From NCBI RefSeq assembly GCF_963676685.1, contig NC_092351.1:63364001-63428000 (forward strand): a stretch of DNA of 64,000 nt. The letters are read 5' to 3'. A program made the position numbers and the translations under genes. Of the stretch, positions 9,222 through 42,857 are shown piece by piece. Each line of letters begins with the position of its first letter. The first letter of the stretch is position 1. Below the pieces are notes generated by a model, which was not told where the DNA came from, made no database searches, and was given only the letters and a program-made list of their open reading frames with translations. The DNA comes from Mytilus edulis (Eukaryota).

Positions 9222-10203
9222 ATAGGTTTCATAACGAGTGAGAATTAGATATCGATTGATATCAACTCGAGTTATTTAATTTCAATAATAATAAACGAGC
9301 CTACGGCGAGTTTATTATTATTGAAATCAAGCGATATCTAATTCTCACAAGTTGTTAAACCTATTTCTCTTATGGCAAAAAGTTGTATGTGCGTGGCTTA
9401 TTTGTTGCGAGTTGTGTTGCTAAGGCCGTTTTTCTTTGCAACGCGTACTGATCTTTCTCTTATGGTTGGGGCCTGTTATCTAATTTGTAACAAGTGTATT
9501 GACACGTTATTTCTACAATAATAAACAAATAACTCACTTGTTGCGCCTTAAAATCTTCTTTTTATCAGATTTTATTACATTCTGAAGCGGCACAGAAGCC
9601 AGAAAACGCCCGGTGTTTATGTATGACACCGGAAGCATACCTATGACGTCACGTAGTGTAGGGACCAAAGAAGATAACATCTTTTCGCGGAATTTTCTGT
9701 AATGAAGATTTTACACTGAAATTGTGATTGAAATTTAATTATGAACTTGTTTTGCATTAGAATAGAGATAACTGTATTGGTATTTGAAGCTTTGCGGACG
9801 TCCATCGGTAGTTTCACTGTCGCATACATAGGGAAATTGAAATTGGAAATTGTGCCAGATATAATGCCCTTTGCTCCGTTACATAACCGTACACGGGTTC
9901 CTTTCTTTATTTCTTCGTCCATGATAAGATTTGTATTAGATAATGCAGACTATAAAGCAGACGAAAATCGCGAAAACCGGAAGTAAACAATCAGTTGTCA
10001 AGAAAAAAAGTAGTCCCGGCATGACCTTTTCCAGTGAACAATGACCTGATCAACGGCCAATGAAAATATTGGAAATTTACGAGATAAGCCAATCAAATTA
10101 ACGTAATTTTGATATCACTTTTTCATATCACTCTCCGTACGGTGTGATACGAAAAATATCTATTCACGTGGGAGTTAGATAACAGGCCCCAACCATAAGA
10201 GAA
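9222..10203. mobile_element. Non-autonomous palindromic DNA element (Crypton-associated type suspected)
   Basis: Long imperfect hairpin 9222-9364; perfect 29-bp inverted repeat 9455-9483 / 10175-10203; no coding capacity. Confidence 0.5.
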
Positions 10204-10706
10204 TACATTGATAATACTGCCTTGTTAAATATACCTTATTGTCAAAGAATGCAGCAATTATTCTGTTGTCAACGGCCAAAGAAAAAATCGGGATGATCAA
10301 ACATGGAATTCCGGAAATTGACCGTCTCCAAAAATATTAAATTCTAAAATTGAGTTATCGTCCTTTTCGCGCCAGACGACTATTGAAAAGGCTAAATAGC
10401 ATACCCGTAAATGTGCATGCTACCCCATTTCCTTTCTCAATTTTATTGTAATCATTTACTGAGTATTTATGTTAACAATTTGGTTGCTGTATTTGCATTT
10501 TGAGAACTTCGATTTAAATCTATACACATATACACTTCTGTAGTATAAAAACCGGCCTTATTTTAAATAGTGATTGCAGGTTATATGATTTTGATGTTCG
10601 TTCCTGGTAAAAGGGTTGTTGTACAATGTTAACAAAATAAAAAAAAAATCAAGACAAGTCTTTAAACTGATTAAACAGTTATGTCTGTAGTAGATAATTG
10701 ATAAGC

Positions 10707-10780
10707 AGTAGTGGATTCGGAAACGATAATCAACGAGCGACGTCAGTCGCGAGTTGATTACCGATTCCGAATCCACCACT
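10707..10780 (+). repeat. 74-bp hairpin with CGAG/CGAG apex
   Basis: agtagtggattcggaaacgataatcaac-GA-gcgac gtca gtcgc-GA-gttgattaccgattccgaatccaccact; perfect 22-bp inverted copy of the left arm at 12307-12328. Confidence 0.9.
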
Positions 10781-11205
10781 TCTTATCAATTTTCTTACTT
10801 AAACCAGTGATTTTGATTTTTGTTTACTCGGAACCTAATAAAATGTATCCCTTACGAACCACAAAATCTCAATCATTTTTTTCAAATAAAATGATTGAAT
10901 ATTGACTTTTCGAAGTGATTTGTGTTTTCTATGGATGGATTATTTCAAAGGTGAAATCAAAATAAAATGTTCCCAAATTAATTTTATTGTTTGAATCAAA
11001 TAAATACACGAATTGTAAGAACAAAATTGAAGTTACAAATAATCATTATAAATCAAAAACGATTATATTTTAATCACTATGTAATAATATAGCCATCGCT
11101 TTGTAATGATAATTGCAATTTAAAAAGTTTTGAACTAACCCCTTAAAGGAAAATGTATAAATGTACGAGTTCGAGTAAAAACAGCTCATCAAAAATTGTG
11201 TAACA

Positions 11206-11505
11206 ATGGAATCGGACGATGAAAATATATTTATAACTCAGTCAAAGTTCTGTGATAATTATACTAAAAGTTCTGAGGATTTAAGTGGCAATTTTTTTTT
11301 ATGTATGAGGATATATCATCAGCTTCTGAAAATGAAGCTACTCTTTTCAAAATCCGATTTATGAGGATATATCGTCTGCGTCAGATGAAGAGTTAATGTG
11401 CACTTTAGTAGATCGTGTAACCTCTGACTTACGTAATAAGCCAGGATCATCAAGGTTGAGCAAGATTGTTTCCGACAACAAAATAGAGGAACTTTCTGTT
11501 AGGAG
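11206..11505 (+). pseudogene. Probable first exon of a Crypton-type recombinase gene (acidic N-terminus)
   Basis: ATG-initiated MESDDENIFITQ..., YEDISSAS twice, ...SSRLSKIVSDNKIEELSVRR ending at a phase-2 GT donor; internal frameshifts. Fits the usual lead-in to the STKKKIKWA motif at 14651. Confidence 0.45.
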
Positions 11506-11862
11506 GTCAGTAATTTATATTCCTTTTTGTGTAACATATATTATTTTCAAATTACCCCCCCCCCCTTTTTTCTTTTGTATTCATTAAGAATATTACAAGA
11601 TTACACTTGAAAGACCCCTTTCCGTTCTAAACCTAATGAGGATTAAAATTTTGAGAAACGAGTCCAGAATAAGTGATATAAATATGTTTGCCTGTCATTT
11701 TGGTGCAAATTATTAAGATATTTATGTCTATAAAGATCTCTAAATGAAGGAAAATGGATGAAAAAAGTTATATAAAAAACTCACTCAATAAGTTCCGAGT
11801 TGCATGACTGTTATGAAAGATTCGCTAAAAAAACCGTTTAAAACTGAATTTTCAGCGTGTCT

Positions 11863-12280
11863 ATAAAAAGGGAAAGTGTGGTATGATTGCAAATGAGACA
11901 ACTCTCCACAAGAGTCCAAAATGACACACGAATTAACAACTATACAGGTCACCGTACGGCCTCCGACAATGAGCAAAGCCCATACCGCATACTATCGTTG
12001 TTCGTCTTAACTTAACAACTACACAGAAATATGAAAAGCCATAATTGGGAAAACTTAAAAAAGTACCCCAAATAACTAAAAAATAAACGGAATATATAAA
12101 AAAAGAAGATGTGGTATGATTGCCAATGAGACAATTATCCACAAAAGACCAAAATGACACAGACATTAACAACCATAGGTCACCGTACGTCCTTCAACAA
12201 TAAGCATAGCCCATACCACATAGTCAGCTATAATAGGTCTCGATAAGACAATGTAAAACAATTCAAACGAGAAAACTAAT
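11863..12280 (-). repeat. Two adjacent family B 3'-end fragments
   Basis: gtggtatgattgc(a/c)aatgagacaa...ggtcaccgtacg motif starting near 11863 and near 12095; reverse complement of 1930-2113. Confidence 0.7.
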
Positions 12281-13634
12281 GGAACATTACTTTTTGATTG
12301 TCCAACTATCGTTTCCGAATCCACTACTTTTTTTTACTTCTAACAAAAATTGATGTATTGGTAACATAAACTTAGCCCTGAGCCCAAAAGGAAATGTATA
12401 TATTTAATTGTATTTAACACGAAAAACGATATACCTATTCAACCTGTTATTCTTCCACCTTTCCGTATGAAAAATAAGGAAATGTAATATAATTGCCAAT
12501 GAGACAACTATTTTTCAGAAATGTAAAAAAGTGAATGGAATCAAATTAAGGGTAACTGTTAAACCTTCAACAATAAGAAGAATCTTTACCGTACAGTTTA
12601 TCCTTAAAAAATCCGACGTGAAATCCGACCCTCTCCATACTCTGTATGTAATTTTTTAAAGGCAGTGGCTTGTTTGCCGGCTCTGCCCTCTAGTTTACCG
12701 GCTCTGATTAAAATAAACTGATTCAAACCGGCACAGTAACCTATTTCTATAGAAATGGCTACTTTCCTGGCACCAGCAGTACAGTGAATTCTTTTTGTAT
12801 GTTCTATGTGAAGAGTGAAATTAAATATTTACTTTAGAAAAAGAACTACGAAAATGTGCGCTGTCAACAGAATAGAATCAAATTATACACCTTTGGCTCC
12901 TGTAACTGTATATGAAAATACTGAAAACCATTTCATTCAGATTTTGGACGCAATCAAATTTTTTTTTTTATGTAATACATGTTCACTATAAGGTTTGGGA
13001 GAAAATAGATTCAGAATATTTTCTTTGCCATCTGGCTGCATTAAAAAATATTTTTTTCATCATATTGGGGAACAGAATGTTTTGGGTATTAATTTGTTGT
13101 TTTTTTGGGGGGGGGCGTAACCGCTCCACCCCACCCCCATCAGAAGTTAAATGGTCGTTCATTTATAGGCATCATTAGTAAACATTCAAATCAAGGTCTT
13201 TAATTTTGGGCTGATATGTAGAAAATCACTCAAGTTAACATATCTAATTTTACTAATAAGTTATCATTTGACATGCAAAAAAAAATCCTTTCGTTCGGGA
13301 TAAATCTTAACTTATTAATAAGTAGTTTTATGCATATTATCCCTGGTATGTATATCAAAGCAAGTAAAGTAAAGTATCTAATTTAATTTCGGGTTACATA
13401 TATACACAATAACAAGGAAAATGTAGTCCACGCTATAGTATCATAATTATATACACTTGTTTACAATTTTGGAACATCGTAGGTGTGTTCGAATAATAAT
13501 TGTCACTTTAAATTCACCTAGTATACTAGTCTATCTTAGTTATCAAAAGAATTGATTTAAGACAATTGAAAGACGAGATTTTATTAATAACATTTTATTT
13601 CAAAAATCATATTTCTTAACTAACAATTCAAAAA

Positions 13635-14176
13635 TCATCTTCGCTAGCCAAGGGTTACGATCCATTCCCGCTCTCTTCACCCTTGGCGGATTGAGATAAA
13701 ATTTCGGAGACACAAGGTAAGGATTTTTATTGGTTGCAGTCAAAACTCGCTGCATCCAATCAAAATGCGCATATAACATGATCACGTGTAAATGTAGAAA
13801 GTGTTTGTAAACAATTGCCACGTGTTTTTTGTGCAACAAGTCTTTACATTCCTAAACATACTATAGTTAGTGCAAACTTGAATGTTTTTAATCAACAAAT
13901 AGAAGTTCCTGTGTATGTTTCATGCACAAATGCATGAATGTTGACGTATGTTTTCATTTCCGGCTTTACCAAGTGTGTAGAATCTAGACGCTACCATGTT
14001 TTTACCTCCAAATTGAAGAGTTCAAGTGCTACCATTGGTCAAGAATAATGTATTCGGAATTGGCGTGATTTTTATCTTCCGATAGATGGCGCACCATTGT
14101 TATCACAAATGTTGGCTCAATCCGCCAAGGGTGAAGAGAGCGGGAGTGGATCGTAACCCTTGGCTAGCGAAGATGA
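13635..14176. mobile_element. MITE with 61-bp TIRs
   Basis: 13635-13695 is the reverse complement of 14116-14176 with one mismatch; flanked by duplicated tcaaaaa(tc), a 7-9 bp TSD depending on boundary choice. Confidence 0.88.
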
Positions 14177-14650
14177 TCAAAAATCGATATCAGAAATTAA
14201 ATTTTTCAAACTTCACACATGCTTTGGTAAATATTTTGAATACCTTTGCAGATTTTTGAATACTTAATTCTCATCTTCGAAATTAAATGCCGACTTTTTT
14301 GTCTTTATTTTCCGCAAAATATATAATTGACCCTTGTGTTCAATAAGGCAATAGATCTAACTTTCCAATTTGGAAAGATTATTGTAATCATATTTATTTG
14401 CTTCGTAAATGATTTCTTTTCCTTTTTTAATTGAACTGTATTTTCTAGCTTTAATATTTTATTATAAATTTGGGTTCAAATTTGTGTCTTGTTTCTTTTT
14501 TCAACTAGTATATTATACCATACAAAAAAGAAATGAACCACCCCTTCAAATTGAAATCCGAATATCAATTGTATGATAAGAAATGTACAATGATAAAAAT
14601 ACCTGATAAATAAATATTTCACAATCAAAATTTCGTTTTTTTTTAATTTA

Positions 14651-15360
14651 GCTGACAGCACTAAAAAGAAAATTAAATGGGCATATAATCTGTTCAATAC
14701 CTGGAAAACCCAAAGAAATGCTATAACCGTGGCTGATCTCCTTCTTAATATAAGTATTATTTCGTAAGATCTAGAAGTCATGACAAAGGACCAATTGTGT
14801 TTTGCTATCTCTAGGTTCATATGTGAGATAAAAAAAGAAAATGGAGCCCTTTATGAAATTTTGATAAACCTACAGTTATATTTAGAAGGAAAGGGGAAAT
14901 ATTTCAAGTTTTTAAACATGTTAAACGAAGATTGTTTTGTCCAAATTAAGAACACACTTGATCACACGATGAAAGAACGAGCAAGAGCTGGGTAAGGAAC
15001 ACACAAGAAAAAAGCACAGGAAATTTCTTACCATGAAGAAAATATGCTATGGGAGAAAGGAGTTTTAGGAAATAGTACCCCTCTAAATCTTCTTGATACT
15101 ACTATTTATTTATTTGGCCTACATTTCGCACTTCGTGCTGGAAAGGAGCTTCGAGATCTACGAATTGAAAACAGTCAAATATCAGAGCACACAGACACCA
15201 ATGGTGACTCCTACCTGGTATACAGAGAGGATGTTTCTAAGTCTAACAAAGGCGGGTTAAAATCTAGAAAGTGCAAACAAAAGGTAGTTTTTGCGTATGA
15301 GAACAAAGAAAATCCTGAGAGATGTATTGTTAAATTTTATACAGACTATATATCTCATTG
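14651..15360 (+). pseudogene. Crypton tyrosine recombinase (DUF3504/ZMYM-like) exon, inactivated
   Basis: One frame: STKKKIKWAYNLFNTW...LCFAISRFICEIKKENG...EENMLWEKGVLGNSTP...FGLHFALRAGKELRDLR...YREDVSKSNKGGL...NPERCIVKFY. In-frame TAA at 14765 and 14993; GT donor at 15361; downstream catalytic exon not seen. Confidence 0.85.
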
Positions 15361-15907
15361 GTCATTTTTTTCAGTGTACATTACTTATTCTATACTTTGG
15401 ACTTTAATAAATAAAATGTTTGGGGTTTTTTTTAAATGAAAAACAATGTTAGTTTGATGTTTTTTTCTAAGATCCAAGATTTTATAAATAATCAAATTAT
15501 TAGAAATCCAAATTACTTTTGATTTAAATAATTCAATTGGATATTTTTATTTATCAGACTTTAATTTAAAATGAGGTAGAATTACAAAAAAAACCTTGCT
15601 TGTAAATTTATTAATATTCGTTATCATTTAAGCATGTAAATTTAACACAAGTGTTGCAGTTCTTTTCAGGATGTGCATTTTGTTTTGTTACTTCTATTTC
15701 ATTTTGTTTTTTGGAATAAATATTATACAGTTTTTGTATTTTTGCAGCCTTTTCAAGAAGTGAATTTATATATACTACAATATGGCTCATTATTTTATAT
15801 TTTAAGCATGTTTAAACGTCTTCAGAAACATGGGCAAATTCACAAAATTACAAAAAGACGAGAAATATCTCTGTTAACAGTTCTTATACAATTAGAAGAG
15901 TACAGCA

Positions 15908-16060
15908 AATGCAAGAGAGAGGCGAAAGACATCAAAGGGATATCCAAACTCATAAGTCAAAAAATAAACTTACAATGCCACGGCAAAAATTGAAAAAAAA
16001 AGACAAACAACAGTTTACAAATTACAACATAGACATGCAACTTAAAAATGAGCAGCTTGA
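15908..16060 (-). repeat. Family C 3'-end fragment
   Basis: Diverged copy of 40032-40180. Confidence 0.5.
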
Positions 16061-16567
16061 AACAGAAATGCACTGTTTGTCAAAAAGATAATGTATGTGT
16101 ATATTGTTTTCATGATGTATAAAACATGTAAAATCCCGGAGAGTAGAAACGTTTAAAATAATCATGCAAAAAAATGTAGGTAACAAAGTTATCATTAAAA
16201 TAGTTTAAATGTTTGGGTAAATGTCAGGACACACAACAACAATGAAAGAATTAGAAGGAGACCGTAGAAGTAGCTACAGCTGTGAGAACGAGGCAGACAT
16301 GTTTGGAGTACAGCTTTTGAAGGACAAAGTAGAGGCTATGGCCTATAAAAAACCCAAACCTAGGACTTTCAGCAAATACCAAACTGAGGACAGATTAATA
16401 AAAACAGAGAGAATGAAAAAAAGTAGACTGATAAAAGAGCTCACCAGAATTGGTGGAAAGTTACAAACACATGATAAAGAACCTGTGGAGTGTCTTTTTA
16501 TTATTAAGAACAAAGCTACAAACAGGTTTAAATATGTGGGCTTTGGAGATGTGTGTGACAATTTTGA

Positions 16568-16998
16568 TTGATTGATTGATTGTTGGTTGCTTAACGTCCA
16601 GTGGCAAATAGTTCATGCATATTCAGGACGTGAACAAGTTCACAATAAATACAATAGGTAGGTCTTGTCATAATAGAGGCCATTTTGGGATGATGGTCGG
16701 GGAAATTTGGACTGCCACTGGAAAATGAGGGTATATTGGATAGGGACAGAAATTTGGCCTTGCAACAGGCCACCTAAGGGCCCTCAAAGAGTTGTTGCAA
16801 GGGTTCTTAACGTGCAAAGAGCGTGACACTCTCTTAACACGAGACATCGGATTTAAGGTTTCCATTCTGACCGGACGTGACTGCGAACTTAATACATCCC
16901 GCACAGCCAAACGGACGCCCCACTTCGGCAAGCGTTTTACTGCCGGTCGGGAAAAGACCAAGTGACCATATTTCTATTCCCCAGTCACCCTAGGGGGA
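16568..16998 (-). mobile_element. SINE family S1, copy 3, full length
   Basis: 12-bp TSD tgacaattttga at 16556-16567 and 16999-17010. Confidence 0.92.
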
Positions 16999-17576
16999 TG
17001 ACAATTTTGAGAATGGCTTGCCATTAACCAAACATATTTCAAAGTGCCGAAAATATACTTTTCCGGAACAGGGTTACTTTCCAAACACAGATGAAGTAGA
17101 CAAAGAAATTGAACAGCTGAAAGTATTCATTTTGGGTTTATTGCCACACAAAATCTACCAACAACATCTAGCAGTAGCAACATGACTCTCTGTGATTTGC
17201 AGAAGAAAAGAATCAATGCCATGGAAATAAAGGATTCGGAAACTGTAAACATTAAAAGGTGAGACCTTTCACAAGTATTGGATGTGTAAATTTGTACAAA
17301 GTACATAATAATATGTAGCAGCCATATTCTTTTTTGAAGGGAAGCTTGAATTTCATTGAGATTCTAGATTTTTTTTTAACCAGTGTATAAATGTTTGATA
17401 TTATCTTTCTTTGTATTAAGTGTGATATGCTAATGTTATTTTGTAATATTTACAGAAAGAGGGAACTGTTTAGCCAGAAGGCCAGAGAAAGAGGAGCGAG
17501 GGGAGGAGGGAGACAATAATTAAAAGAGCAAGTTCATGGGACCTCTTATCATAAAGAAAATTGATAGTATTAATTA

Positions 17577-17812
17577 TAAAAAAGAAGATGTGGTATGATT
17601 GCCAATGAAACAACTGTCCACAAGACATTAACAACTTTAGGTCACTGTACGGTCTTCAACAATGAGCAAAGCCTATACCACATAGTCAGCTTTAAAAGTC
17701 CCTGATATGACAATGTAAAACAATTCAAACGAGAAAACTAACGGCCCTATTTATAAGGGGAACGAAAAACAAAAATGTAACACACAAACAAACGACAACG
17801 ACAATTACAGGC
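17577..17812 (-). repeat. Family B 3'-end fragment
   Basis: Matches 12095-12280 and the reverse complement of 1855-2113. Confidence 0.7.
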
Positions 17813-18435
17813 TTAAGTTTATTTGATACTTGTGGTAAAACCTTCATGTTACAGACTTTCAACAAACAATCAATGATAAGTTGAACAGACGAGACATTTC
17901 AGCGTGTGCACTCCTGATATATAAACTGAGACATTTTTTTAGCAAAACCTATTCACTATTTAACATCTTAAGCATCAAGTTGCTTACATACCTTGAATTT
18001 GATTAGGAGTGTATTGGGTTAAAATGCCAGGCAGATGTTGAAGTGATACACTATGATTCTTAAGCATGTTTAAGCATTATCCTTTTTTCAGAATATCGAG
18101 TGAATCTGAGAGTGAATCAGATAGTGCCATAAACAAAAGGCTAAAGAAGGCAAATCGAGGTAGAGGAAGAGGAAAAGGCGCACTCAATGGAAAAGGAAGT
18201 GGAAAGACGTCTCAAAGCAGACCGTAATTTGAGTCATCATTATACACAAGTTATAAAAAACGACAATACTGATTGTGTAGGTTATATAATGACTATTGAT
18301 TACACTTTTATGTTGTATTTCCCCCCAATTAAATTAATAAGCAATACATTTAAAGTGTAGATTAGGTATCATTTTGATTGATTGCTTCCTGTACATCACA
18401 AACACCTTTTGCTTAGATTCCCTGTTTACCTTTAG

Positions 18436-18560
18436 AAATTGCAATTGGTATTTGCTGCTTTTCTGCTCAGCCAACACCATATAGCAGTATGAAATAAGTC
18501 TGGGTGGATTTGCATCATGCTAACATATAGAAAGGAAATAACTGCTTGCACATTAAGAAT
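18436..18560 (+). repeat. Old Meta-domain SINE fragment
   Basis: aattggtatttgctgcttttctgctcagc resembles the MetaSINE central domain. Confidence 0.4.
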
Positions 18561-20244: not shown

Positions 20245-20345
20245 GTGATGAGTTTGATCTCTGACCAGGTCAAAGCAAAGGGTTCAAAATTGATATTTGC
20301 TATTTCTCAAGCAGAAACAAGACATTAGTATGCTGGGCACTGTTG
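20245..20345 (+). repeat. Old tRNA-derived Meta-domain SINE fragment
   Basis: Decayed B-box gagtttgatctc followed by ggtcaaa...aaaattgatatttgctatttctc, similar to 18443 onward. Confidence 0.4.
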
Positions 20346-21399
20346 TCATAAGAAAAAGATCCACTTCTACCTAATGAGTTAGAAAAAGAGTCCCGCAATT
20401 GAATCTTGACCTATTTACAAAAATCATTTGTGCAAGTAAAGACTTATCAATTTATCATTTAAAAGATAACATGCTTCTGAAAAATGGTGGTTGGGGGGGG
20501 GGGGGGTATTTTGTGGATGTTACCTTTTTTTATAAAACACATACTGTGTTCTTGGAAAAGGTGAAGATTTGGAAGGTCACACACTCCAAAGGAAAAAAAG
20601 TCACAATATATAATATTATTTATAAGAAGTATGTTGGAATGAAGTCATTTTGTAAAAATATGAAATAAATAATTAAAAAATTACGAAAACTTATTTTTTT
20701 TATAAATGAATAAACAAACAAAACGAATAAATATAACTAGTAAAAGTGAAATAAATTATGTATTTCTTCAAAACAAACAGAAAAAAAAATATTGTTTCCT
20801 TTTCTTTCATGATGAGCCCTAGTTGTATTATATGGATATGGCTTCCTACCAATAGAAGACGGATGTGAAAGGTCTACAAAATAGGGAAAGGTGCAACAAG
20901 AAGCCACTAATGAATCTCAACAGTCACTATCGATAAATTTTAAAATTACGTAGCTATTATTAATGGGGATGATTCATTTGTTTATCATGAAATTCAATGA
21001 AGGATTCTCATGATATTGGTAAACCCAGCTTTTAAAAATCACAATAACATAAGGTAAAACAATATTATAGATTTTTTTTTACTTTGACTCAAATTACAGT
21101 AGAATATAAGAATTCATTCACTCTCCTATAAAAGAAAAACATAATTTCAAGTGTTCTCAAATCAAGAATGGAAGTCATTAAAAGCGGTTCCAAATTTTGC
21201 TATCAGAGATACATGTATACCAAACATACTACCAGAAAAACAATAGGACAGAGCGATCCATCACTGAATACAGAGGGTCCATTACAACTTCACTGCAGGA
21301 TCAAATTCCAACTCCTGTCTTCGTCACAACCATGATCACAAGTAGTATCAGCATATTAAGGTACAAATCCAGCAGAATTCAGCATAACAACATTGCTTT

Positions 21400-27774: not shown

Positions 27775-28244
27775 CACTACAAACTCCTCAGAGTCTGAAT
27801 TGACCAGTTTTTGTGCTCGACCAGTAAAATCGAGCACACATTTTACTCGACTAGTCTCGACATTGTCTCGACTGTACTTAACTGTACTTAAGTGTACTCG
27901 ACTAGGTCTCGACTTTACTTAATTAGTCTGATTCAGTACTTGATGATCTTTGTGTAGTCTGAAATGGTCTTGACCAAGACTCGACCTGTCTCGACCTGTC
28001 TTGACTAGTCTCGACCTGTCTCGACTAGTCTCGACTCAGTCTCAATCAGTCTCGACCTGTCTCGACTAGTCTTGACCTTCAAATTTAGTTTTGACTGGTG
28101 TAAATCAGCCCATCTAACTAAATTAAATATTGATCTTACAAAATTCAAGCTTATAAGGTAGTTTGATTTATTGCTGTGAAATGAAAGAATTTAATTTTAC
28201 AATATGTAAAAAAAAAATTATTATTTAAAGATTCAGATAGGCAT

Positions 28245-28990
28245 CTTTAATTTTTTTTATAACTTTTTCAAACCAACTTGGATTTTCATCAAACTATGCA
28301 GCTATCTTACATATATGTCAAGCTTACTGAATCCCATTTCATTTAGTTTTTTGTTGTATTGCTGTCAAATTTAAAAATTAATTTAATCTAGGTATAAAAA
28401 GCTAGGATTTGCAATTCGGACAAAATAGAGATAGTACACTTTAATTTTTTTAATAACTTTTTCAAATCAACTTGGATTTTCATCAAACTATGCAGCTATC
28501 TTAAATGTATACTAAGCTTACTAAATCCCAGGTCATTTTGTTTTTTATTGTATTGCTGTCAAATTTAAGAATTAAATTAATCTAGGTAAAAAAATCTAGA
28601 ATTTGCAGTTCGAACAAAATAGAGATAGTACACTTTAATTTTTTTTATAACTTTTTAAATTCAACTTGGATTTTATTGAAACTATATAGCTACCTTGGTG
28701 ATGTATTCTTCTTACTGAATCCCAGGTTGTTATAAAGTTTGTTGTATTGCTGTCAAATTTAAGAATTAATTTAATCTAGGTAAAAAAAAAGCTAGGATTT
28801 GCAGTTTTGACAAAATAGAGATGGTACACTTTAATTTTTTTCATTACTTTTCCAAATCAACTTAGATTTTCATCAAACTCTACAAATATCTTTGCAATAT
28901 ATTGATCTTACTGAATCATAGGTTGTTATTTTGTTTGGTGTATTTCTGTCAAATTTAAGAATTTAATTAACCTAGGTGAAAAAGCTACGA
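28245..28990 (+). repeat. 194-bp tandem repeat, ~3.8 units (left arm)
   Basis: Unit starts at 28245, 28439, 28633 and 28829. Confidence 0.9.
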
Positions 28991-29389
28991 TATTAGAAAT
29001 ATATCTTTTCTCATAATTTGGGAAAAAGTATACATAGAATTTTTATATAATTCCTTTAATGTTTTATTCCTTTTGATATACACTATATAAATATATCAAA
29101 AAGGGATGAAACATTAGAAATTATTAAAATAGTTCTTCTGATTTGTGGTGATTTATAAAGCAATACCTTCTGCTTGGGGCAAACTTATTAAAAAGATCAC
29201 ATCTACCAGAGAGTTTTAAATTCTAAATAACATTTATTCAAAGTTGCAACATCCTGTTAAATCTAAATCGCAGGGCTTTTAATTCACTAGATAAGTAATA
29301 CACGAGTTTAAGAAAAGTAGGGCTTTCTTTTTACCTGTAAAACTCACGTGTACTGATGTAATTAAATCATGTATAGTGTCATGTCATTA

Positions 29390-30684
29390 AATTTGACAAA
29401 AAAATATTTTAAAACTTCATAACAACCTGGGATTTAGTAAGATCACCAAGGTAGCTATATAGTTTTAATAAAATCCAAGTTGATTTGAAAAAGTTATTAA
29501 AAAAATTAAAGTGTACTATCTCTATTTTGTTCGAACTGCAAATTCTAGCTTTTTTGACCTAGATTAATTTAATTCTTAAATTTGACAGCAATACAACAAA
29601 AAACAAAATGACCTGGGATTTAGTAAGCATAGTATACATCTAAGATAGCTTCATAGTTTGATGCAAATCCAAGTTGATTTGAAAAAGTTATAAAAAAAAT
29701 TAAAGTGTACTATCTCTATTTTGTTCGAACTGCAAATTCTAGCTTTTTTTGACCTAGATTAATTTAATTCTTAAATTTGACAGCAATACAACAAAAAACA
29801 AAATGACCTGGGATTTAGTAAGCTTAGTATACATCTAAGATAGCTGCATAGTTTGATGCAAATCCAAGTTGATTTGAAAAAGTTATTAAAAAAATTAAAG
29901 TGTACTATCTCTATTTTGTCCGAATTGCAAATCCTAGCTTTTTGTACCAAGATTACTTTAATTCTTAAATTTTACAGCAATACAACAAAAAACTAAATGA
30001 AATGGGATTCAGTAAGCTTGATATATATGTAAGATAGCTGCATAGTTTGATGAAAATCCAAGTTGATTTGAAAAAGTTATTAAAAAAATTAAAGTGTACT
30101 ACAAATGTATCTCTATTTTGTCTGAATTGCAAATTCTAGCTTTTTATACCAAGATTACTTTAATTCTTAAATTTTACAGCAATACAACAAAAAACTAAAT
30201 GAAATGGGATTCAGTAAGCTTGATATATATGTAAGATAGCTGCATAGTTTGATGCAAATCCAAGTTGGTTTGAAAAAGTTATTAAAAAAATTAAAGTGTA
30301 CTATCTCTATTTTGTCCGAATTGCAAATCCTAGCTTTTTGTACCAAGATTACTTTAATTCTTAAATTTTACAGCAATACAACAAAAAACTAAATGAAATG
30401 GGATTCAGTAAGCTTGATATATATGTAAGATAGCTGCATAGTTTGATGAAAATCCAAGTTGATTTGAAAAAGTTATTAAAAAAATTAAAGTGTACTATCT
30501 CTATTTTGTCCGAATTGCAAATCTTAGCTTTTTGTACCAAGAATACTTTAATTCTTAAATTTTACAGCAATACAACAAAAAACTAAATGAAATGGGATTC
30601 AGTAAGCTTGATATATATGTAAGATAGCTGCATAGTTTGATGAAAATTTAAGTTGGTTTGAAAAAGTTATAAAAAAAATTAAAG
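29390..30684 (-). repeat. 194-bp tandem repeat, ~6.5 units (right arm, inverted)
   Basis: Anchor gtgtacta at 29511, 29705, 29900, 30094, 30296 and 30490; one unit carries an 8-bp insertion. Confidence 0.9.
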
Positions 30685-31143
30685 ATGCCTATCTGAATCT
30701 TTATATAATAATTTTTTTTTACACATTGTAAAATTAAATTCTTTCATTTCACAGCAATAAATCAAACTACCTAATAAGCTTGAATTTTGTAAGATCAATA
30801 TTTAATTTAGTTAGATGGGCTGATTTACACCAGTCAAAACTAAATTTGAAGGTCAAGACTAGTCGAGACAGGTCGAGACTGATTGAGACTGAGTCGAGAC
30901 TAGTCGAGACAGGTCGAGACTAGTCAAGACAGGTCGAGACAGGTCGAGTCTTGGTCAAGACCATTTCAGACTACACAAAGATCATCAAGTACTGAATCAG
31001 ACTAATTAAGTAAAGTCGAGACCTAGTCGAGTACACTTAAGTACAGTCGAGACAATGTCGAGACTAGTCGAGTAAAATGTGTGCTCGATTTTACTGGTCG
31101 AGCAAAAAAACTGGTCAATTCAGACTCTGAGGAGTTTGTAGTG

Positions 31144-33003: not shown

Positions 33004-35652
33004 ACCGTCGTGCCTATTCCAAAACCAAGTAAAGATCATACGGATCCTATTAATTATCGACCAATTGCTCTTACCAGTTGTGTCTGTAAAACACTCGAAC
33101 CGATGGTCAATGATCGCCTTGTTTGGTTCTTGGAATCCAATGGGCTTTTAGCCAATATCCAGTGTGGATTTTGACAAGGACGAAGTACTCTTGATCATCT
33201 TGTTCGATTCGAATCATTTGTCCGTAATGGTTTTGCGAGAAAAAAAACATGTGGTGTCGGTCTTTTTCGACCTTGAGAAGGCCTATGATACTGCATGGAA
33301 ATATGGTATTTTTAAAGATCTATTTGATATTGGGTTAAAAGGCAACATGCCTAATTTTATTTCTAATTTTCTCACTAACAGACAATTTAATGTTAGAGTT
33401 AATTCGACCATGTCTGATCTGTATGATCAAGAGATGGGTGTCCCTCAGGGCAGTATTTTATCTGTGACATTATTTAGTCTTAAAATCAACAGCCTTGTTA
33501 AAGTTTTAAAAAGTAATATTGAAGGTTCATTGTACGTTGATGATTTTTTAATATGTTTCAGAGGTAAAAATATGAACAACATAGAAAGACAATAACAACT
33601 ATGTCTTGGAAGAATTGAAAAATGGGCCTCGGAAAATGGTTTTAAATTTTCCACGTCTAAAACGGTCGGGATTCATTTTTGTAACAAAAGGAAATTGCAT
33701 CTTGATCCAGAACTCACTTTGTACGGCAACCCAATTAAAATGGTTGATGAAACCAAATTTCTTGGGATAATTTTCGTTAAAAAGTTAACCTTTCTACCCC
33801 ATATCAAAATGTTAAAATCGAGATGTTTAAAAGCTTTTATAGATATTTTAAAAGTTGTCGGCAGCACTGACTGGGGTGCTGATCGCAACATTTTACTTAA
33901 TTTATATAGATCTCTAGTTAGATCTAAACTAGATTATGGCTCTATAGTGTATGGCTCTGTAAGGAAGTCCTACATACAGATTCTCGATGCTGTGCATCAC
34001 CAAGGTTTGCGTCTCTGTCTTGGCGCATTCAAAACCTCACCAGTTGAGAGTCTGTATGTAGAGGCTGATGAGCACTCACTCTCTGACAGACGTTTGAAGC
34101 TTGGACTTCAATATGCTGTCAAACTAAAAGCCTATTCAGATAATCCTGCCTACAGTTGTGTTTTTAATCCGATTTATGAAGATATTTTTGCAAAACATGA
34201 AAATAAAATTCCTCCGTTAGGTATACGTTTAAAACCACATTTAGCTTCTTTTGATTTAAAATCTGTTGCTCAAGTTAAAATTTGCAAATGTCCTCCATGG
34301 GAACTTCCCAAACCAAAAATGATATTTGATCTCCGTGAACACAATAAAAATAAAACAAATCCTCTTTTAATTCAGCAACACTATGCTGAAATTAAAGCCA
34401 ATTATCCAGATTTTTCAACTGTCTATACTGATGGATCAAAAGATGGCGACAGAGTTGCATCTGCTGCTGTCTTCAGGGACAGAGCTGCAACTCTCCGTTT
34501 GCCATCTGATGCATCCATCTTTACTGCTGAAGCAGAAGCAATAATTTTAGCTTTGAAATTTATTGCTTCTTCAGATAAATCCAAATTTATTATATGTTCG
34601 GATTCACTTTCATGCTTACAAGCTATACGAAATACTAAAATTAAAAACCCAACAATTCTCAAAATTTTATATGTAATGAGGAATTTAAAAATTCTTATGA
34701 AAGACATAATATTTCTATGGGTTCCGAGTCATGTTGGAATCCTTGGAAACACGGCTGTAGACCTTGAGGCAAAGAATGCCCTGGGTGACCCTCTATCTAA
34801 CTGTGATATACCATATACTGATTTTAAATATAATATTATAGAATATGTTTTTGATATATTGAAAAATAAATGGAGTAAAAAAGATGATAATAAATTGCAT
34901 GAAATTAAACCTTATTTAGGCAAACCTTTTAATAATATTATGTGCAGAAAAGATCAGTGTGTTATTACTAGATGTCGTATTGGTAATTCTAGAGTAACAC
35001 ACGAGTATCTTTTATTGATTGATTGATTGTTGGTTGCTTAACGTCCAGTGGCAAATATTTCATGCATATTCAGGACGAGAACAAGTTCACAATAAATACA
35101 ATAGGTAGGTTGTTGTAATAGAGGCCATCTAGGATGATAGTCGGGGAAATTTGGACTGCCACTGGAAAATGAGGGTATATTCGATAGGGACAGAAATTTT
35201 GCCTTGCAACAGGCCACCTACGGACCCCTCAAAGAGTTGGTGCAAGGGTTCTTAACGTGCAAAGAGCGTGGCACTCTCTTTACACGAGGCATCGGATTTA
35301 ACGTCCCCTTCTGGCGGACGTGACTGCGAACTTGATACATCCCGCACAGCCAAATGGACGCCCCACTTCGGCAAGCGTTTTACTGCCGGTCGGGAGAAGA
35401 CCAAGTGACCATATTTCTATTCCCCAGTCACCCTTGGGGATTGAGTATCTTTTAAAAAATGAAGATGAACCACAATGTGTTCCTTGCAACTGCAAGTATA
35501 CTATTAAACATGTTTTAATTAATTGTATTGACTTTGCTGACATTCGTAAGAATCATTTCAATGTCAATAATATGTATGATTTATTCAATAATGTTCCATT
35601 TACAAATATTGTTGCATTTTTAAAAGAAATTGGAATTTATTATAGAATATAA
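33004..35652 (+). pseudogene. LINE ORF2: RT, RNase H, zinc knuckle
   Basis: NYRPIALTS, FFDLEKAYD, GVPQGSILS, LYVDD, KFLG; RNase H YTDGSK, SDSLS, WVPSHVGI. After SINE removal: HEYLLKNEDEPQCVPCNCKYTIKHVLINC. Stops at 33172 and 33593; frameshift near 33240. Confidence 0.92.
35015..35442 (-). mobile_element. SINE family S1, copy 5, inserted in LINE ORF2
   Basis: 12-bp TSD gagtatctttta at 35003-35014 and 35443-35454. Confidence 0.93.
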
Positions 35653-36162
35653 AAATGTTATATTTAAATCGTTTTTAAATTTTTATCACGTTATTTTACT
35701 GTTGATTTTTATTTGTATATAATCAATTTGCTTTAGTCAAGAATTTTAGTATATTGAAGGACTTTTTGTCTTATTTTAAAAATATGCTTTAAATTGTAAC
35801 AAATTTCGAATTAGCTCTCGCCGCGATATAGCCTTTTTGTGCTAATGCGGCGTAAAGCAACCAACAATCAACTATTTATATGAGAAGCCATTGGTTTCTT
35901 TTCAGCCTTCAACATTTGAGAAAAAGCCATACCAAAATAAAATATTATAGCTATAGCAGGACCTTGAAAACATGAAACTATAGAAACATATACAACTGTC
36001 TTGACCCCCCCCCCCCCAAAAAAAACTAATAAAAAAGCATTGAATTTAATGTCACATTTAACATGGTTAACATTTAACAGTTGTCATGGTTGTTATAAAT
36101 TAATTTTCATTTTTTTTCAGTGAGGCAACAATTCTGATGAAAGAATACAGTTTTAATCTAGA

Positions 36163-36570
36163 TTGATTGATTCTTGGTTGCTTAACATCCAGTGGCAAAT
36201 ATTTCATGCATATTCAGGACGAGAACAAGTTCACAATAAATACAATAGGTAGGCTGGTACAATAGAGACCATCTGGGATGATGGTCGGGGAAATTTGGAC
36301 TGCCACTGGAAAATGAGGGTATATTGGATAGGGACAGACATTTTGCCTTGCAGCAGGCCACCTACGGACCCCTCAAATAGTTGTTGCAAGGGTTCTTAAC
36401 GTCAAAGAGCGTTGCACTCTCTTTACACGAGACATCGGATTTAACGTCCACCTTCTGACCGGACGTAACTGCGAACTTGATACATCCCGCACAGCCAAAC
36501 GGACGCCCCACTTCGGCAAGCGTTTTACTGCCGGTCGGGAGAAGACCAAGTGACCATATTTCTATTCCCC
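36163..36570 (-). mobile_element. SINE family S1, copy 6 (first ~15 nt missing)
   Basis: Flanked by a 35-bp direct repeat (36128-36162 / 36571-36605, 3 mismatches). Confidence 0.9.
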
Positions 36571-36700
36571 ACAATGCTGATAAAAAAATACAGTTTTAAT
36601 CTAGAAGAAGATCAGGTAACATGTTTAATAAATAACTGTATAAAATAATATGTATATATTTCAAATCAGTACATTCTCTTAAATTACAAGAAGTATATAT

Positions 36701-36808
36701 TAGGATGGTATTAAATACTTCAGAAGATAATTATTTGTTACACTTGAATACGGATTGTAGACGCTACTCGACTCTAATGTCCATCTACATGCGTGTTACT
36801 TAATTTCA
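36701..36808 (+). repeat. ~108-bp dispersed repeat, copy 1
   Basis: Direct copy at 48317-48425 (taggatggtattaaa...gtgttacttaatttca). Confidence 0.8.
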
Positions 36809-37908
36809 TTTTTCAACGACTGACTTTCACGTAAGTAGAACGTGAAATATTTCTCATGAATTACGCGTATAATCTCGAGTAACTTAAAATTCCCGTGAAC
36901 AAATGCATCTGTGTGCCGCAATTGCACATAATTTCGTATAAAACATATACATGTACGGGTATTCTATATTGTAAACAAAGCAATAAAAAGTCCTGAAAAA
37001 TTACTAATGAACAGACAGAGAGGTTTGCACCATTCACATAACCAATAAAAGATAGGAGCTAGAGGTTATATGTTCCATGTTCATTAAGACAGTAGACATA
37101 ACGTAAACAGCCTGTTCCAGCAAATGTTACCCCCTTAAGGTGAAGCTACTGAGGAAAAGATTCGCTGTCGTTTTATCTAATCAATCAGGTGACGATACTT
37201 TGAGTTATGATCTTCGCAATCCAGCCTTGTCCTATTAGAGGCCTTACGCATTTCAATTTACGCAAAGACCTTCTATCTCATCACCTTTAGTATATGTCGA
37301 GGATGTTAGCTTCACTGGGCGAAGAAAATCGACAAAAAGGGTAAACTAAACATTCTAAAGAAACACGAGACAAGAAAAACAATAAAAAGGGAAATCAACA
37401 AGAGAACTGATCAAGGAAAATGAAGATGAAGAACGAAGTTCTGAAATACTTGGTTAAAACAAACAAATCAAAGTATCATGGAAATTGTGATTTAGCCAAT
37501 TTTGTAGCTAGTCGGACATTTTTTCTGGCCACACTTTCAGTATTTGTTTTGTTATTTTAATTTTCGTAATCTCATTGTAAAATTCGATAATTATTTTGGT
37601 ATTCCAATTGATGTAAAAATTCAAATGTAAAATGATATTATGCTATTGACAATTTGAATAATTGATGTTTTATATAAACAATTATATTGCTGGGTAATCA
37701 GATCATTACAACCGCTATTCAATTTCTTTGGTCAGTACTGTCTGTTAAGGAGATGTTTATATATGGTGAGAAACTGGTTACTTTTTCAATTGAAGTGCAA
37801 TCGTCTCTGATTTTGGACTATGTATGATGAACGATATGCATTATTATTTGCCTAATGCCTCCGAAAACCTTGTGTTAAGTAGACATGATTAATTCTTATT
37901 TGTTCCCA

Positions 37909-39449
37909 AAAATATTATTTCTTTCAGAAGAATTTATAAATTCCTCATTACATATAAAATTTTGAGAATTGTTGGTTTTTAATTTTAGTATGAATAGTTT
38001 TAGCATGAAAGTGAATCCGAACATATAATAAATTTGGATTTATCTGAAGAAGCAACAAATTTGAAAGCCAAAATTATTGCTTCTGCTTCAGCAGTAAAGA
38101 TGGATGCATCAGATGGCAAACGGAGAGTTGCAGCTCTGTCCCTGAAGACAGCAGCAGATGCAACTGTGTCACCATCTTTTGATCCATCAGTAAAGACAGT
38201 TGGACAATCTAGATAATCGGCTTTAATTTCAGCATAGTGTTGCTGAATTAAAAGAGGATTTGTTTTATTTTTATTGTGTTCACGGAGATCAAATATCATT
38301 TTTGATTTTGGAAGTTCCCATGGAGGACATTTGCAAGTTTTAAATTAATCAACAGATTTTAAATCAAAAGAAGCTAAATGTGGTTTTAAACGTATACCTA
38401 ACGAAGAAATTTTATTTTCATGTTTTGCAAAAATATCTTCATAAATCGGATTAAAAACACAGCTGTAGGCAGGATTATCTGAATAGGCTTTTAGTTTGAC
38501 AGCATATTGAAGTCCAAGCTTCCAACGTCTGTCAGAGAGTGAGTGCTCATTAGCCTCTACATACAGACTCTCAACTGGTGAGGTTTTAAATGCGCCAAGA
38601 CAGAGACGCAAACCTCGGTGATGCACAGCATCGAAAATCTGTATGTAGGATTTCCTTGCAGAGCCATACACTATAGAGCCATAATCTAGAGATCTATATA
38701 AATTAAGTAAAATGTTGCGATCAGCACCCCAGTTAGTGCTGCCGACAACTTTTAAAATATCTAAAGCTTTTAAACATCTCGATTTTAACATTTTGATATG
38801 GGGTAGAAAGGTTAACTTTTTAACGAAAATTATCCCAAGAAATTTGGTTTCATCAACCATTTTAATTGGGATGCCGTACAAAGTGAGTTCTGGATCAAGA
38901 TGCAATTTCCTTTTGTTACAAAAATGCATCCCGACCGTTTTTGTCGTGGAAAATTTAAAACCATTTTTCGAGGCCCATTTTTCAATTCTTCCAAGACATA
39001 ATTGTAATTGTCTTTCTATGTTTATTCATATTTTTGCCTCTGTAACATATTAAAAAATCATCAACGTACAATGAACCTTCAATATTACTTTTTAAAACTT
39101 CAACAAGGCTGTTGGTTTTAAGACTAAATAATGTAATAGATAAAATACTCCCCTCTCTTGATCATACAGATCAGACATGGTCGAATTAACTCTAACATTA
39201 AATTGTCTGTTAGAGAGAAAAATAGAAATAAAATGAGGCATATTGCCTTTCAACCCCATATCAAATAGATCTTTGAAAATACCATATTTCCATGCAGTAT
39301 CATAGGCCTTCTCAAGGTCGAAAAAGACCGACACCACATGTTCATTTTTCGCAAAACCATTACGGACAAATGATTCGAATCGAACAAGATGACCAAGAGT
39401 ACTGCGGCCCTGTCGGAATCCACACTGGATATTGGCTAATAGCCCTTTG
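37909..39449 (-). pseudogene. Second, internally decayed copy of the I/Nimb-like LINE
   Basis: Reverse complement of ~33135-34715 with substitutions, frameshifts and a 15-bp deletion (RSLDYG versus RSLVRSKLDYG). Confidence 0.92.
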
Positions 39450-39457
39450 ACTATTCC

Positions 39458-39635
39458 AATTACACAAGAAGTGACAATGGATTTTTGCCTGATTTTATTA
39501 CAGTCCAGAAGAAAAAGGCTACAAAACTACATGTGCAGCAAAGATGATGTGTGGAAAAACTGTGGGAAATCTTACTGATGAGATAAAGATAAAATCTGAT
39601 TTAGTGTATGATAAGCATTCAGGGGAATTTTAATT
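39458..39635 (+). pseudogene. P-element/THAP9-like transposase fragment
   Basis: ILTDEIKIKSDLVYDKHSGEF resembles the DEMKIK.xLVYD...G motif around the first catalytic Asp. Confidence 0.5.
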
Positions 39636-40031
39636 ATTGCATCACAGAGAATCCATTTTTAGAGATGGCAGGAAAATCTCCTTTGTGTCGGATGTTCCCT
39701 ATTCGGTGTACGATAATGTGTATATTTAGGTGTATTAATTTTAATTTTACAAAATGTTCGAGGGGATCGCTCTTGAAACCTGAACAGTATATATCTGTCG
39801 TAATTAGACAGTAGGATCGTATAATTTTGGTTCAACAATCCGCTGATTCCGGTTAAAGTCTGTAGGTGTGTGATCTTGACGGGCATAATTCACGTCAATG
39901 CAGAAGTTAGTATATGCGTGTGTGAAGTGCTATGTTGCAGGCTACAGGTCACACTTATAAATATTATATATATCATTGACATTCATATTGATAAATGACA
40001 TGATTATACGTCAATAAGAACCCAACGACAT

Positions 40032-40364
40032 AAAAGAGGGACGAAAGATACCAAAGGGACAGTCAAACTCATAAATCTAAAACAAACTGACAACGCCATG
40101 GCTAAAAATGAAAAAGACAAACAGAAAAACAATAGTACACACGACACAACATAGAAAACTAAAGAATAAACAACACGAACCCCACCAAAAACTAGGGGGT
40201 GATCTCAGGTGCTCCGGAAGGGTAAGCAGATCCTGCTCCACATGTGGCACCCGTCGTGTTGCTTATGTGATTACAAATCCGGTAAATAGTCTAATTCGGT
40301 AGGTCATATTCATGAAATATTCACCATTTGGAACTCTTGGTTTAATAGCTTCCTTGTGAGCAGT
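40032..40364 (-). repeat. Penelope-like (Naiad-related) family C 3' end
   Basis: Minus strand begins LLTRKLLNQEFQMV, homologous to ITEKLLHQGFRYH of the RT at 6338-7393, then the family C UTR. Confidence 0.7.
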
Positions 40365-41955
40365 TAAAGAGCATAAAGAGGGTAACAATTAGTCTTTAAC
40401 AATGGACAAAATAAATAAGTAAAGACAACTGTTGAGAGTATTAACATATCGACTCAGTCAGATATTTTTCAACATATATGGTTTTACACATGCAGTGAAA
40501 CATACACAAATAAATTGGGATTGTTTTTTTATTTTGTACTGTTACACCACTGTTTCCAAGGGTTACATGCTCAAAACATGTCCCATATTGTGTGTGCCTG
40601 TAGTCAAGTGGTTGTCTATGGTTTATGTCTGCCATGTCTGGGTTTTTTTTAATTGTTTTGGTATAAGCAAGACCAGTAGTTTTCAGTTCCAATTGTTTTT
40701 GATTCCTGACATCATTTCATTTTAAATATAGAAAAATAATATATAATAACTAATAGTATATACTGTGTTAATCTAATACAGGTATTTGTCACCAATAGGG
40801 GACCACTGACCATCTGAGAGGGGACACGCTTTGGTCAAGCTCAAGTGGTTCTCTCTAAAATCAACAAATCAAGACCACAACACATTCATACTCGATAACA
40901 ATTACCTTTCTAATAATTTCTGTTCATCTTCAACATGTCAGACAATAACTCATTTTAACCAATTTGCATGAAAATTTGGTACATATGAGACCAAAATGAC
41001 ACAAAAATTAACAACTATAGGTGACCGTACGGCCTTCAACAATAAGCAAAGCAAATAACATTCTTTGCATTATGATAACTATTGAGGTGTACATGATTTC
41101 TGTATAATTTTATGAAAATGTATCAAGCTCAACTTCTTGAAAAGTTTAACCTTCAATTGATGCTTTTTGTAAATATCAGTTGCTTTTAAAATAAAAAAAT
41201 CAAGGGTTAAATTTTGTTTCAAATTTCCATTCAAATCTAAGAAAAAACTTAAAATCTCTTTTACGTCAATGTCTCCCCTTTTTAATTGTTTTTTTTTCAT
41301 CTACATGATGGAAATTCCATCACTCCAGTTTTTGTGTGCATAGATAACAAGGCACTCTTTCAACCACTCTGATTTACAAGAACAAGCCCTGTCTGAACCC
41401 TATACACTATTATTACAAGGAGATGAAAATATACAAAATAACTCTAAAACTGCCTATCGCTTCTATTGTCGCCTTAATAATCCTTTAGAGCCACCAACAC
41501 AGAATATGTACCATATACCAACCGCGACATTCTGATGCAATTTAAACATTTGCTTCAGACCTAGATACAAATTTAGTTCATGATATGTTTGTTATCCCAA
41601 ATTCACTTCACTATTTAAGAGATCTGGAAACCTTAGTAACTGCAGACTTTCATCAAATCTGTAGTATTGCTTCATTTGATACTGACTGTATATATATTAT
41701 AAACAACACCGTATTTTACCTCAGCGCCAATCATATTGAAGAAATTCTCTGTTACACAAGTTTTATCAGGTATTATACTTATAGAAGTATACCTTATTTT
41801 TTATTCTCACTGGATGAATCATGTTTTAAAATCCATTGGGATCTACATGCTGATAATTTACCTGAATGCATTTATAATTTTTGGTATGACATTTAAAGTT
41901 TTTCATTGCTATTCAAAACAAATCTATACATTTTATATATATCTGGAAACTGCAG

Positions 41956-42340
41956 ATGACAAGCCCGGTACAGATACTCCAACGCTATAGGGACGTTGTG
42001 GAAGAAAAACTCAATGTTAAACAGAAAATTGAGAAACTGCAGAGGGAGTTGGTAGCCCTTGACCAGAAGGAAAACTTTCTAAAAGACACCCTTCTTAATC
42101 AATCGAGTAAATCACCAAGCCAACGTCTCCCAATTCTTCCTGGTTCTTCCTTCGGCCAACTGATGATATTACAGTTGAGAGGTACTGTACACCTTCACAG
42201 CTCCACAGTGTTAACTATAACATGTTAGCAGTAAAAAAATCGACAGGAAACAAACCCATTTAATATTCTTTGTGGTGCATCTGTAACTGGTGGAACTGTA
42301 AACATTAACTTTTTTCCGGAAAAAGAAAATTTGAGTCATC
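41956..42340 (+). pseudogene. Terminal exon-like remnant (coiled coil plus GASVTGGTVNINF tail)
   Basis: Follows a CAG acceptor; KQKIEKLQRELVALDQKE coil; tail motif resembles C-termini of Crypton-type proteins (weak). Confidence 0.3.
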
Positions 42341-42678
42341 ACAGGAATAGACATTTTCAAACCAACTTTACTATTGTTAATGTTATATTAAATTTAGTTA
42401 TGTTTTAAAAATAATATAATTACAATACTTTTTTTGTATTTTATTTAATTTAGTGACCAGCAACCAACATTAGAGGAACCATATATAGGAATCACTGTTC
42501 ATCCTGCTTTTCAACACATAACTTCTGTCAATCTAATATCTTAAGATATTTGGTATATGAAAAGCTTTATTATGGTGAGGTACAAAGTATTTTTTTCAAA
42601 ATTAAACTGTCATTAAAAAGAAGAGAGTACATCAAGTTGGCAGCAACACATACACTTTTGTTCAGTTGGTTAATAAAT

Positions 42679-42857
42679 GTATTAAGAAATAGGTGTTTTT
42701 ATAATGGCCCTGTTATATGTCCTCGTTCAGTAATAATGGCCTCGGAAGTCTGTAATGGCCCTCGGCGTTGCCTCGGGCCATTACAGACTTCCTCGACCAT
42801 TATTACAGACCTTGGACATATAACAGGGCCATTATAAAAACACCCATTCATTAATAC
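42679..42857 (-). repeat. ~180-bp hairpin with three CGAG/CGAG-type internal mismatches
   Basis: Arms 42692-42764 and 42772-42844; CTCG opposite CTCG at 42761/42772 and 42741/42792, CTCG/CTTG at 42722/42811. Confidence 0.92.

Follow-up and report, generated by a model that had tools for sequence, protein, structure and literature searches.

Three long hairpins in a 64,000-nucleotide stretch of the Mytilus edulis genome (NCBI RefSeq assembly GCF_963676685.1, contig NC_092351.1, forward-strand positions 63,364,001 to 63,428,000; hereafter 'the window') are almost certainly the termini of CryptonA transposons, which encode a DUF3504 tyrosine recombinase. The three hairpins belong to three element families, named here F1, F2 and F3, and all carry at their apex a tandem mismatch in which GA lies opposite GA (GA/GA) on one defined strand, the GA strand. 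From comparison of the sequences, we propose that each hairpin, together with the other end of its element, probably forms a folded single-stranded recombination site for the tyrosine recombinase of that family, used in the manner of an integron cassette by exchange of a single strand. With a little less assurance, we favor the broader view that animal CryptonA elements are self-mobilizing, integron-cassette-like transposons. They would then be the first eukaryotic tyrosine-recombinase system to act on a structure-coded folded strand, inserting into degenerate double-stranded sites of the form TAW^N6^WTA, and the sequence of their site would be almost freely changeable.

A gap-free scan of the 64 kb finds these three hairpins and no other long one. 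Hairpin 1 presents GA/GA on the plus strand at 9297-98/9308-09, hairpin 2 presents it on the plus strand at 10735-36/10751-52, and hairpin 3 has TC/TC on the plus strand at 42762-63/42773-74, which is GA/GA on the minus strand. Extra GA/GA or decayed AA/GA steps are found in the lower stem of hairpins 1 and 3. A first-pass annotation of the window had already picked out all three hairpins and their apices, and a check of the sequence finds them where it placed them; its positions stand, but its stem lengths do not, the stems being longer and hairpin 2 starting at 10687. The parts of the three elements are as follows.

9220..10203, gene sense on the minus strand: F1 element, a non-autonomous deletion derivative of a DUF3504 Crypton, with the hairpin at its 3' end; limits exact from empty alleles.
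9220..9225, plus: F1 spacer of six bases, in the arm that would be cut, from empty alleles and conservation among copies.
9226..9360, GA strand plus: F1 hairpin; the window copy is short of ~20 nt of the inner arm.
9361-9364, plus: F1 four-base spacer, from the sequence.
9365-9375, plus: F1 pairing partner of the far end, 11 bases, from the sequence.
10193..10203, plus: F1 far end, the reverse complement of 9365-9375, with terminal AA, from the sequence.
10687..15369, plus: F2, the 5' part of an intron-containing DUF3504 Crypton, collinear with copies L081 and L082 at 87-95%.
10687-10692, GA strand plus: F2 6-nt spacer, followed by the hairpin to 10794 and the 4-nt spacer at 10795-10798.
10799-10809, plus: F2 pairing partner of the far end, closing the terminal structure 10687..10809.
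11206..11505, plus: probable first exon of the F2 recombinase, frameshifted (tblastn with the L081 frame, 91% over part); the limits are estimated from the sequence.
14652..15360, plus: frameshifted F2 exon that encodes DUF3504 and the first catalytic arginine of the recombinase (PF12012, E 2.9e-22; 87% to L081).
42158..42861, plus: F3, the 3' 700 bp of a DUF3504 Crypton whose 5' part is gone, 97-98% to copies L085-L087, with the hairpin at the 3' end.
42664..42861, GA strand minus: F3 terminal structure, a hairpin with three GA/GA-type steps.
42861-42856, minus: F3 6-nt spacer, placed by conservation among copies.
42680-42677, minus: F3 4-nt spacer, followed by the far-end partner at 42676-42664.

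The assignment to CryptonA is based on copies elsewhere in the 1.37 Gb genome. Searches with each hairpin, in which 40 candidates were scored out of 556, 548 and 152, return dispersed copies of 85-98% identity whose similarity ends abruptly a short way outside the hairpin and extends beyond it on the other side. The F1 ends match those of the DUF3504-bearing copy L136 at 90-97% on both sides, and one or both of them recur at 25 loci. The F2 copy in the window, which lies head to head with F1, ends early at ~15369 and has neither last exon nor far end; L081 retains the last recombinase exon with H-x-x-R, H and Y, and the F2 far end was predicted from the hairpin and then located at a boundary common to copies L327 and L328. 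Full-length F3 measures 3.9 kb, and in L085-L087 the DUF3504 sequence lies ~1 kb from the hairpin. In full copies of all three families, a DUF3504 tyrosine recombinase, encoded inside the element, is the only recognized protein in a non-exhaustive search of other coding content. The catalytic motifs R, H-x-x-R, H/W and Y are kept in many copies, the window copy being frameshifted and incomplete. A predicted model of one recombinase (mean predicted local distance difference test score, pLDDT, of 65, with a core above 80) matches by fold QRICH1 best, a Crypton-derived protein, and also Cre, XerA, Tn1549 Int and VchIntIA. The elements are dispersed and multi-copy, have non-autonomous derivatives and make no target duplication, as is characteristic of CryptonA.

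The link to Cryptons drawn by the first-pass annotation is upheld, with DUF3504 (PF12012) detected at 14996-15436 (E 2.9e-22) and every hairpin ending a DUF3504 family. Its suggestion that a single recombinase, encoded downstream of hairpin 2, acts on all three hairpins is rejected: the window exons belong to the element of hairpin 2 only, and the three families each have their own gene elsewhere in the genome, so three enzymes are involved rather than one. A whole-element palindrome, or terminal inverted repeats like those of miniature inverted-repeat transposable elements, was likewise considered and rejected, as the hairpin stands at one end only.

Some copies have internal features of their own. 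The F1 interior at ~9490-9823 holds a nested and far more abundant repeat (contig depth up to 68,000, against ~3,000 at the F1 ends) that is not present in the full copy L136. An inverted internal copy of the F1 far end at 9455-9483, found in many F1 copies, is possibly a second pairing partner or the remnant of a nested insertion. At L022 (G000:C1:92935185-92937150), seven F3 3' ends stand in tandem with a 294-bp period, the hairpin end of each abutting an AT-rich site inside the following unit.

The GA/GA apex is common among DUF3504 elements. We took 10 kb around 100 of the 150 DUF3504 matches listed, leaving out small contigs and many near-identical rows, and compared them with 40 random regions. 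A long hairpin with a strict GA/GA step occurs in 40 of the 100 DUF3504 regions and in 2 of the 40 controls. Grouping the 100 regions with five earlier ones gives 24 multi-copy families and 18 singletons, and 19 of the 24 have a terminal hairpin. Across the hairpins of the 100 regions, GA/GA and its TC/TC mirror make up 72 two-by-two mismatches and the next class 6. After removal of redundancy, GA/GA, a single class of the 42 possible, still accounts for 28 of 73; next comes AA/GA with 11, as would be expected from CpG decay of CGA. The enrichment and the co-location with DUF3504 that the first-pass annotation had proposed to test are both found.

Nearly all of the non-redundant GA/GA steps (27/28) lie between a pyrimidine and a purine on both arms, the context that sheared G-A pairs need. 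Tandem GA steps are described as having unusually strong stacking in DNA (PMC8163305). In 21 of 23 places, GA occupies the strand that runs from the hairpin end into the element, whichever strand is coding; the two exceptions are hairpins that are not terminal for the element in question. The hairpin itself may be 5' or 3' of the gene, at one end only; a 5' hairpin carries GA in the sense strand and a 3' hairpin in the antisense strand.

The arms change and the apex does not. Among six F3-related hairpins, 19 of 73 pairs are altered on both sides around a fixed apex, more than in any of 500 shuffles or any slid control; this count, of a covariation that the first-pass annotation had proposed to look for, is possibly inflated because the hairpins are related and repair acts within palindromes. 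One copy of family V has an inverted apex (L170, 6780-6900 oriented, compared with L188) and one copy of family J a perfected apex (L203, 8735-8817); templated rearrangement therefore does happen inside these palindromes. Family B (L126/L127, 6101-6220 oriented) has an extra GA/GA hairpin in an apparent intron of the recombinase gene, besides the terminal one. Beyond this genome, metagenome contigs contain 38 relatives, of which 5 show a strict GA/GA hairpin upstream of the gene, most contigs being too short for both ends; in viral contigs, none of 122 pattern matches is a relative.

The far end of the element completes the stem. Read inward, it repeats the bases just inside the hairpin at 11-12 of 12 positions in 14 of 18 families, a score that the ends of other families reach in 2 of 306 comparisons, and three more families score 10/12. 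The far end is thus complementary to 10-22 bases just inside the hairpin, and because it repeats these inner bases in inverted form, joining the two ends would lengthen the stem, and the joint would fall close to its base, in the 5' arm of the GA strand. An asymmetric spacer separates the inner stem from the paired far end, with 6 bases on the arm predicted to be cut and 4 on the uncut arm. This 6/4 layout is exact by count in 9 of 19 families (F1, F3, H, D, E, Q, S, W and one from another organism); it is visible in the metagenome loci L289, L292, L296, L297, L299, L301, L304 and L315, and a natural head-to-tail joint at L214 has the same surplus of two (+2). A hairpin at one end, completed by the other end, with a crossover in the 5' arm at the stem base, is the layout of attC, the folded site of integron cassettes, and the geometry fits the attC-like site suggested by the first-pass annotation better than that annotation could tell.

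Insertion follows a defined target and a strict polarity. F1-free alleles are present in all four contig sets of public runs, with joints from 9217 to 10202 with three ambiguous bases (three runs) or from 9219 to 10205 with one other base (two runs); F1 therefore spans 9220-10203 and lacks a target duplication, a possibility rejected by the empty alleles and the flanks alike. Direct repeats of 4-6 bp, of the CryptonF/CryptonS type, are not seen in 38 F1 and 22 F3 flanks or in the empty alleles beyond a chance overlap of 2-3 bp. The flanks of 39-41 F1 and 23-33 F3 ends have TA at -3/-2 followed by a free 6-bp stretch, with T at +8 in 85% of 41 F1 and 87% of 23 F3 flanks; this T is missing at the F1 site in the window. 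The consensus TAW^N6^WTA is a weak two-armed site that resembles a recombinase site, and the insertion point is one edge of its spacer. The element keeps its 6-nt spacer on the hairpin side in 37 of 39 anchor matches for F1 (19/19 in loci picked by the far end), 30 of 33 for F3, 9 of 10 for S and 7 of 8 for C; the exceptions are either matches to the opposite arm on the other strand or come from diverged relatives and sister subfamilies. After the far end the spacer is found in 0/41 (F1), 0/23 (F3) and 0/17 cases, and in family C in 1/8, one base out of register. Such polarity would be the product of one-strand exchange followed by replication; a two-strand exchange would give the other arrangement in about half of the copies unless repair were strongly biased. 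At two loci, L128 (element ends) and L266 (1180-1560), copies are inserted in the second, uncut arm of a related hairpin; that arm can therefore act as a double-stranded target.

These features suggest the following pathway. The GA strand would leave as a single-stranded circle in which the far end is joined to the hairpin. The circle would fold into a long stem whose base consists of an outer binding arm ending in AA, the 6/4-nt spacer (six bases on the cut arm) and an inner binding arm. The recombinase would cut after the AA of the folded strand and after TAW of the double-stranded target, that single strand would be exchanged, and replication would resolve the junction, as it does for integron cassettes. 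Sheared G-A pairs would let the GA strand fold well, and the TC/TC complement would fold worse, which may account for the choice of strand; the 6/4 asymmetry may keep a second cut out of register.

Several observations weigh against this proposal. The Fisher p value for the enrichment of GA/GA hairpins, 1.4e-5, is an overstatement because the DUF3504 regions include related copies of the same families. A terminal hairpin was not found in 5 of the 24 families within the 10 kb examined, and family G fails the far-end comparison with 8/12. The 6/4 spacing is not exact by count in 10 of the 19 families: six are compatible if 2-3 conserved flanking T/A bases represent target preference, F2, R and N fit by eye only, and K gives +1. 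Covariation of the arms may stem from templated repair within the palindrome, of which the perfected apex of L203 and the inverted apex of L170 are instances. By nearest-neighbor DNA energies from ViennaRNA, the GA strand is not consistently favored (hairpin 2: -27.4 versus -29.3 kcal/mol). The ViennaRNA DNA parameters may model sheared pairs poorly, and folding energy, with its mixed results, was dropped as an uninformative strand test. Finally, circle junctions joined at the hairpin, the intermediates that the first-pass annotation had proposed to look for, do not appear among the 15 joints inspected, out of 62, in four contig sets, contigs being prone to drop rare forms, and neither F1 nor F3 has a tail-to-head joint in the genome loci examined.

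The same data can be read in other ways. The site may work as double-stranded DNA, with both strands exchanged without homology as by the Tn916/Tn1549 integrases, the second hairpin arm serving as an inverted accessory binding site and GA/GA merely breaking a dangerous perfect palindrome. Such a site would suit a target consensus that resembles the TTTT-n6-AAAA of Tn1549 (PMC5871717), the recurrence of arm-motif copies near far ends and the two insertions in a double-stranded second arm, and a double-stranded circle is the standing model for Cryptons, whose transposition is undemonstrated according to a 2026 review (PMC13565253). We nevertheless consider it unlikely: two exchanges across unlike spacers should change the spacer placement in about half of the copies, and none of 41 and none of 23 show this; mismatches of every kind could interrupt a palindrome, yet the sheared-pair context is preserved at 27 of 28 GA/GA steps and the strand is fixed.

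A folded strand could instead be a copy-out signal that starts, stops or primes strand-displacement synthesis and yields a one-strand circle, as in the strand-biased SE elements or Helitrons, with integration through a double-stranded circle and biased resolution. The strand polarity would fit equally well, the bacterial SEs do form one-strand circles with tyrosine recombinases (PMC9345347), and an active CryptonF gained copies despite clean excisions (PMC9977147). For the excision step, this explanation overlaps with the single-strand exchange that we prefer; as a full alternative it seems to us quite improbable, for it leaves unexplained the pairing of the far end with bases inside the hairpin and the constant 6/4 spacing at the joint. 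A role of the hairpins at the RNA level, or a neutral origin by template switching at the ends of the elements, is very improbable. Tandem GA is stable in RNA too, and templated changes do arise in these palindromes (L203, L170), but GA is in the sense strand at 5' ends and in the antisense strand at 3' ends and is therefore unusable by one transcript, a strand rule that led us to reject an mRNA-level role; repair from a template would remove both the mismatches and the 6/4 asymmetry, yet these persist in many families and in other organisms.

Other repeats in the window lie apart from these elements. At 27820-31130 lies an unrelated foldback element whose 336-nt arms are 99% identical and which encloses 194-bp tandem arrays. 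Units of 10 bp of the GTCGAGAC type form small GA/GA hairpins in it at 27853 and 31045, which lack the Crypton end layout and are an addition to the first-pass annotation. At 53527-61516 lies a long terminal repeat retrotransposon, presumably Gypsy-like, whose 262-nt repeats are 99% identical and whose gag/pol-like frames are interrupted by stop codons or frameshifts. Two inverted remnants at 33152-39526, with arms of up to 688 nt at 96%, derive from a single reverse transcriptase-RNase H element. On the minus strand, a 360-amino-acid reverse-transcriptase-like frame at 6338-7420, which we take to be Penelope-like, lies between identical 115-bp direct repeats (6160-6274 and 7393-7507).

If correct, exchange of one folded strand would explain how a poorly understood group of animal transposons moves and would offer a possible eukaryotic parallel to integrons. 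The anatomy defines exactly which substrates, cut site, target and strand a direct test should use, and yields an end rule for annotating CryptonA termini, which earlier work could not find. It would also be relevant to how DNA binding arose in the ancestry of ZMYM, QRICH1 and KCTD1, domesticated DUF3504 genes, and could give a scarless, structure-programmed integrase. Our search of openly accessible papers found no description of this end structure, although Repbase, subscription journals or supplements may hold one or mention terminal inverted repeats. For animal Cryptons, the portions available of one survey report no terminal repeats (PMC3212892), and those of an account of the fungal CryptonA Glomhopper describe no detectable repeats and make no mention of a hairpin or palindrome (PMC13465315). 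Eulor5/6 have been filed as Cryptons together with the salmon CryptonA-N (PMC5753468), and self-complementary regions are mentioned for Eulor families (PMC9710123).

Compared with CryptonA as defined by Kojima and Jurka in 2011 (PMC3212892), the elements described here agree in the single DUF3504 recombinase with R-H-R-Y, the derivatives that share both ends and the lack of target duplication; they differ from the published picture (PMC3212892, PMC13465315), as far as those texts describe it, in the one-sided hairpin, the completing far end, the 6/4 spacer, the GA/GA steps and the defined target. CryptonF, CryptonS and Starships are likewise eukaryotic tyrosine-recombinase DNA transposons with clean excision (PMC9977147, PMC3212892), but theirs is a 4-6 bp target motif on both sides, matched over 5 bp in an active CryptonF (PMC9977147), and no such direct repeat occurs here. 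Tn916 and Tn1549 have a comparable AT-rich two-armed target with a free 6-bp centre and no need for homology, but use a double-stranded circle with a variable coupling sequence and exchange both strands (PMC5871717), whereas the spacer here is fixed, element-coded and always on one side. CTX phage and XerCD pair a folded single strand with a double-stranded site in one exchange, as proposed here, but CTX borrows the host XerCD and a fixed dif site (PMC4792948), in contrast to an enzyme of the element's own and many degenerate targets.

Integron cassettes correspond to the proposed mechanism in several respects. In attC, cleavage of the folded bottom strand takes place within the R' box, at the foot of the stem; a single exchange follows and replication resolves the product, while unpaired features choose the strand and block a second exchange (PMC5027507, PMC4792948). 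The present elements are eukaryotic, have their own DUF3504 recombinase in each element and lack an attI platform or promoter array; their strand marker is a tandem GA/GA rather than extrahelical bases on the uncut arm. The attC AAC/GTT triplet and RYYYAAC core do not appear in them, the far ends being mostly AA with a next base that varies by family or target. As in the cassettes, one end supplies most of the hairpin and the other the arm that completes it, the crossover would fall at the stem base in the 5' arm after AA, the shape is fixed with little conservation of sequence, and the products are polar, as expected from the exchange of one strand.

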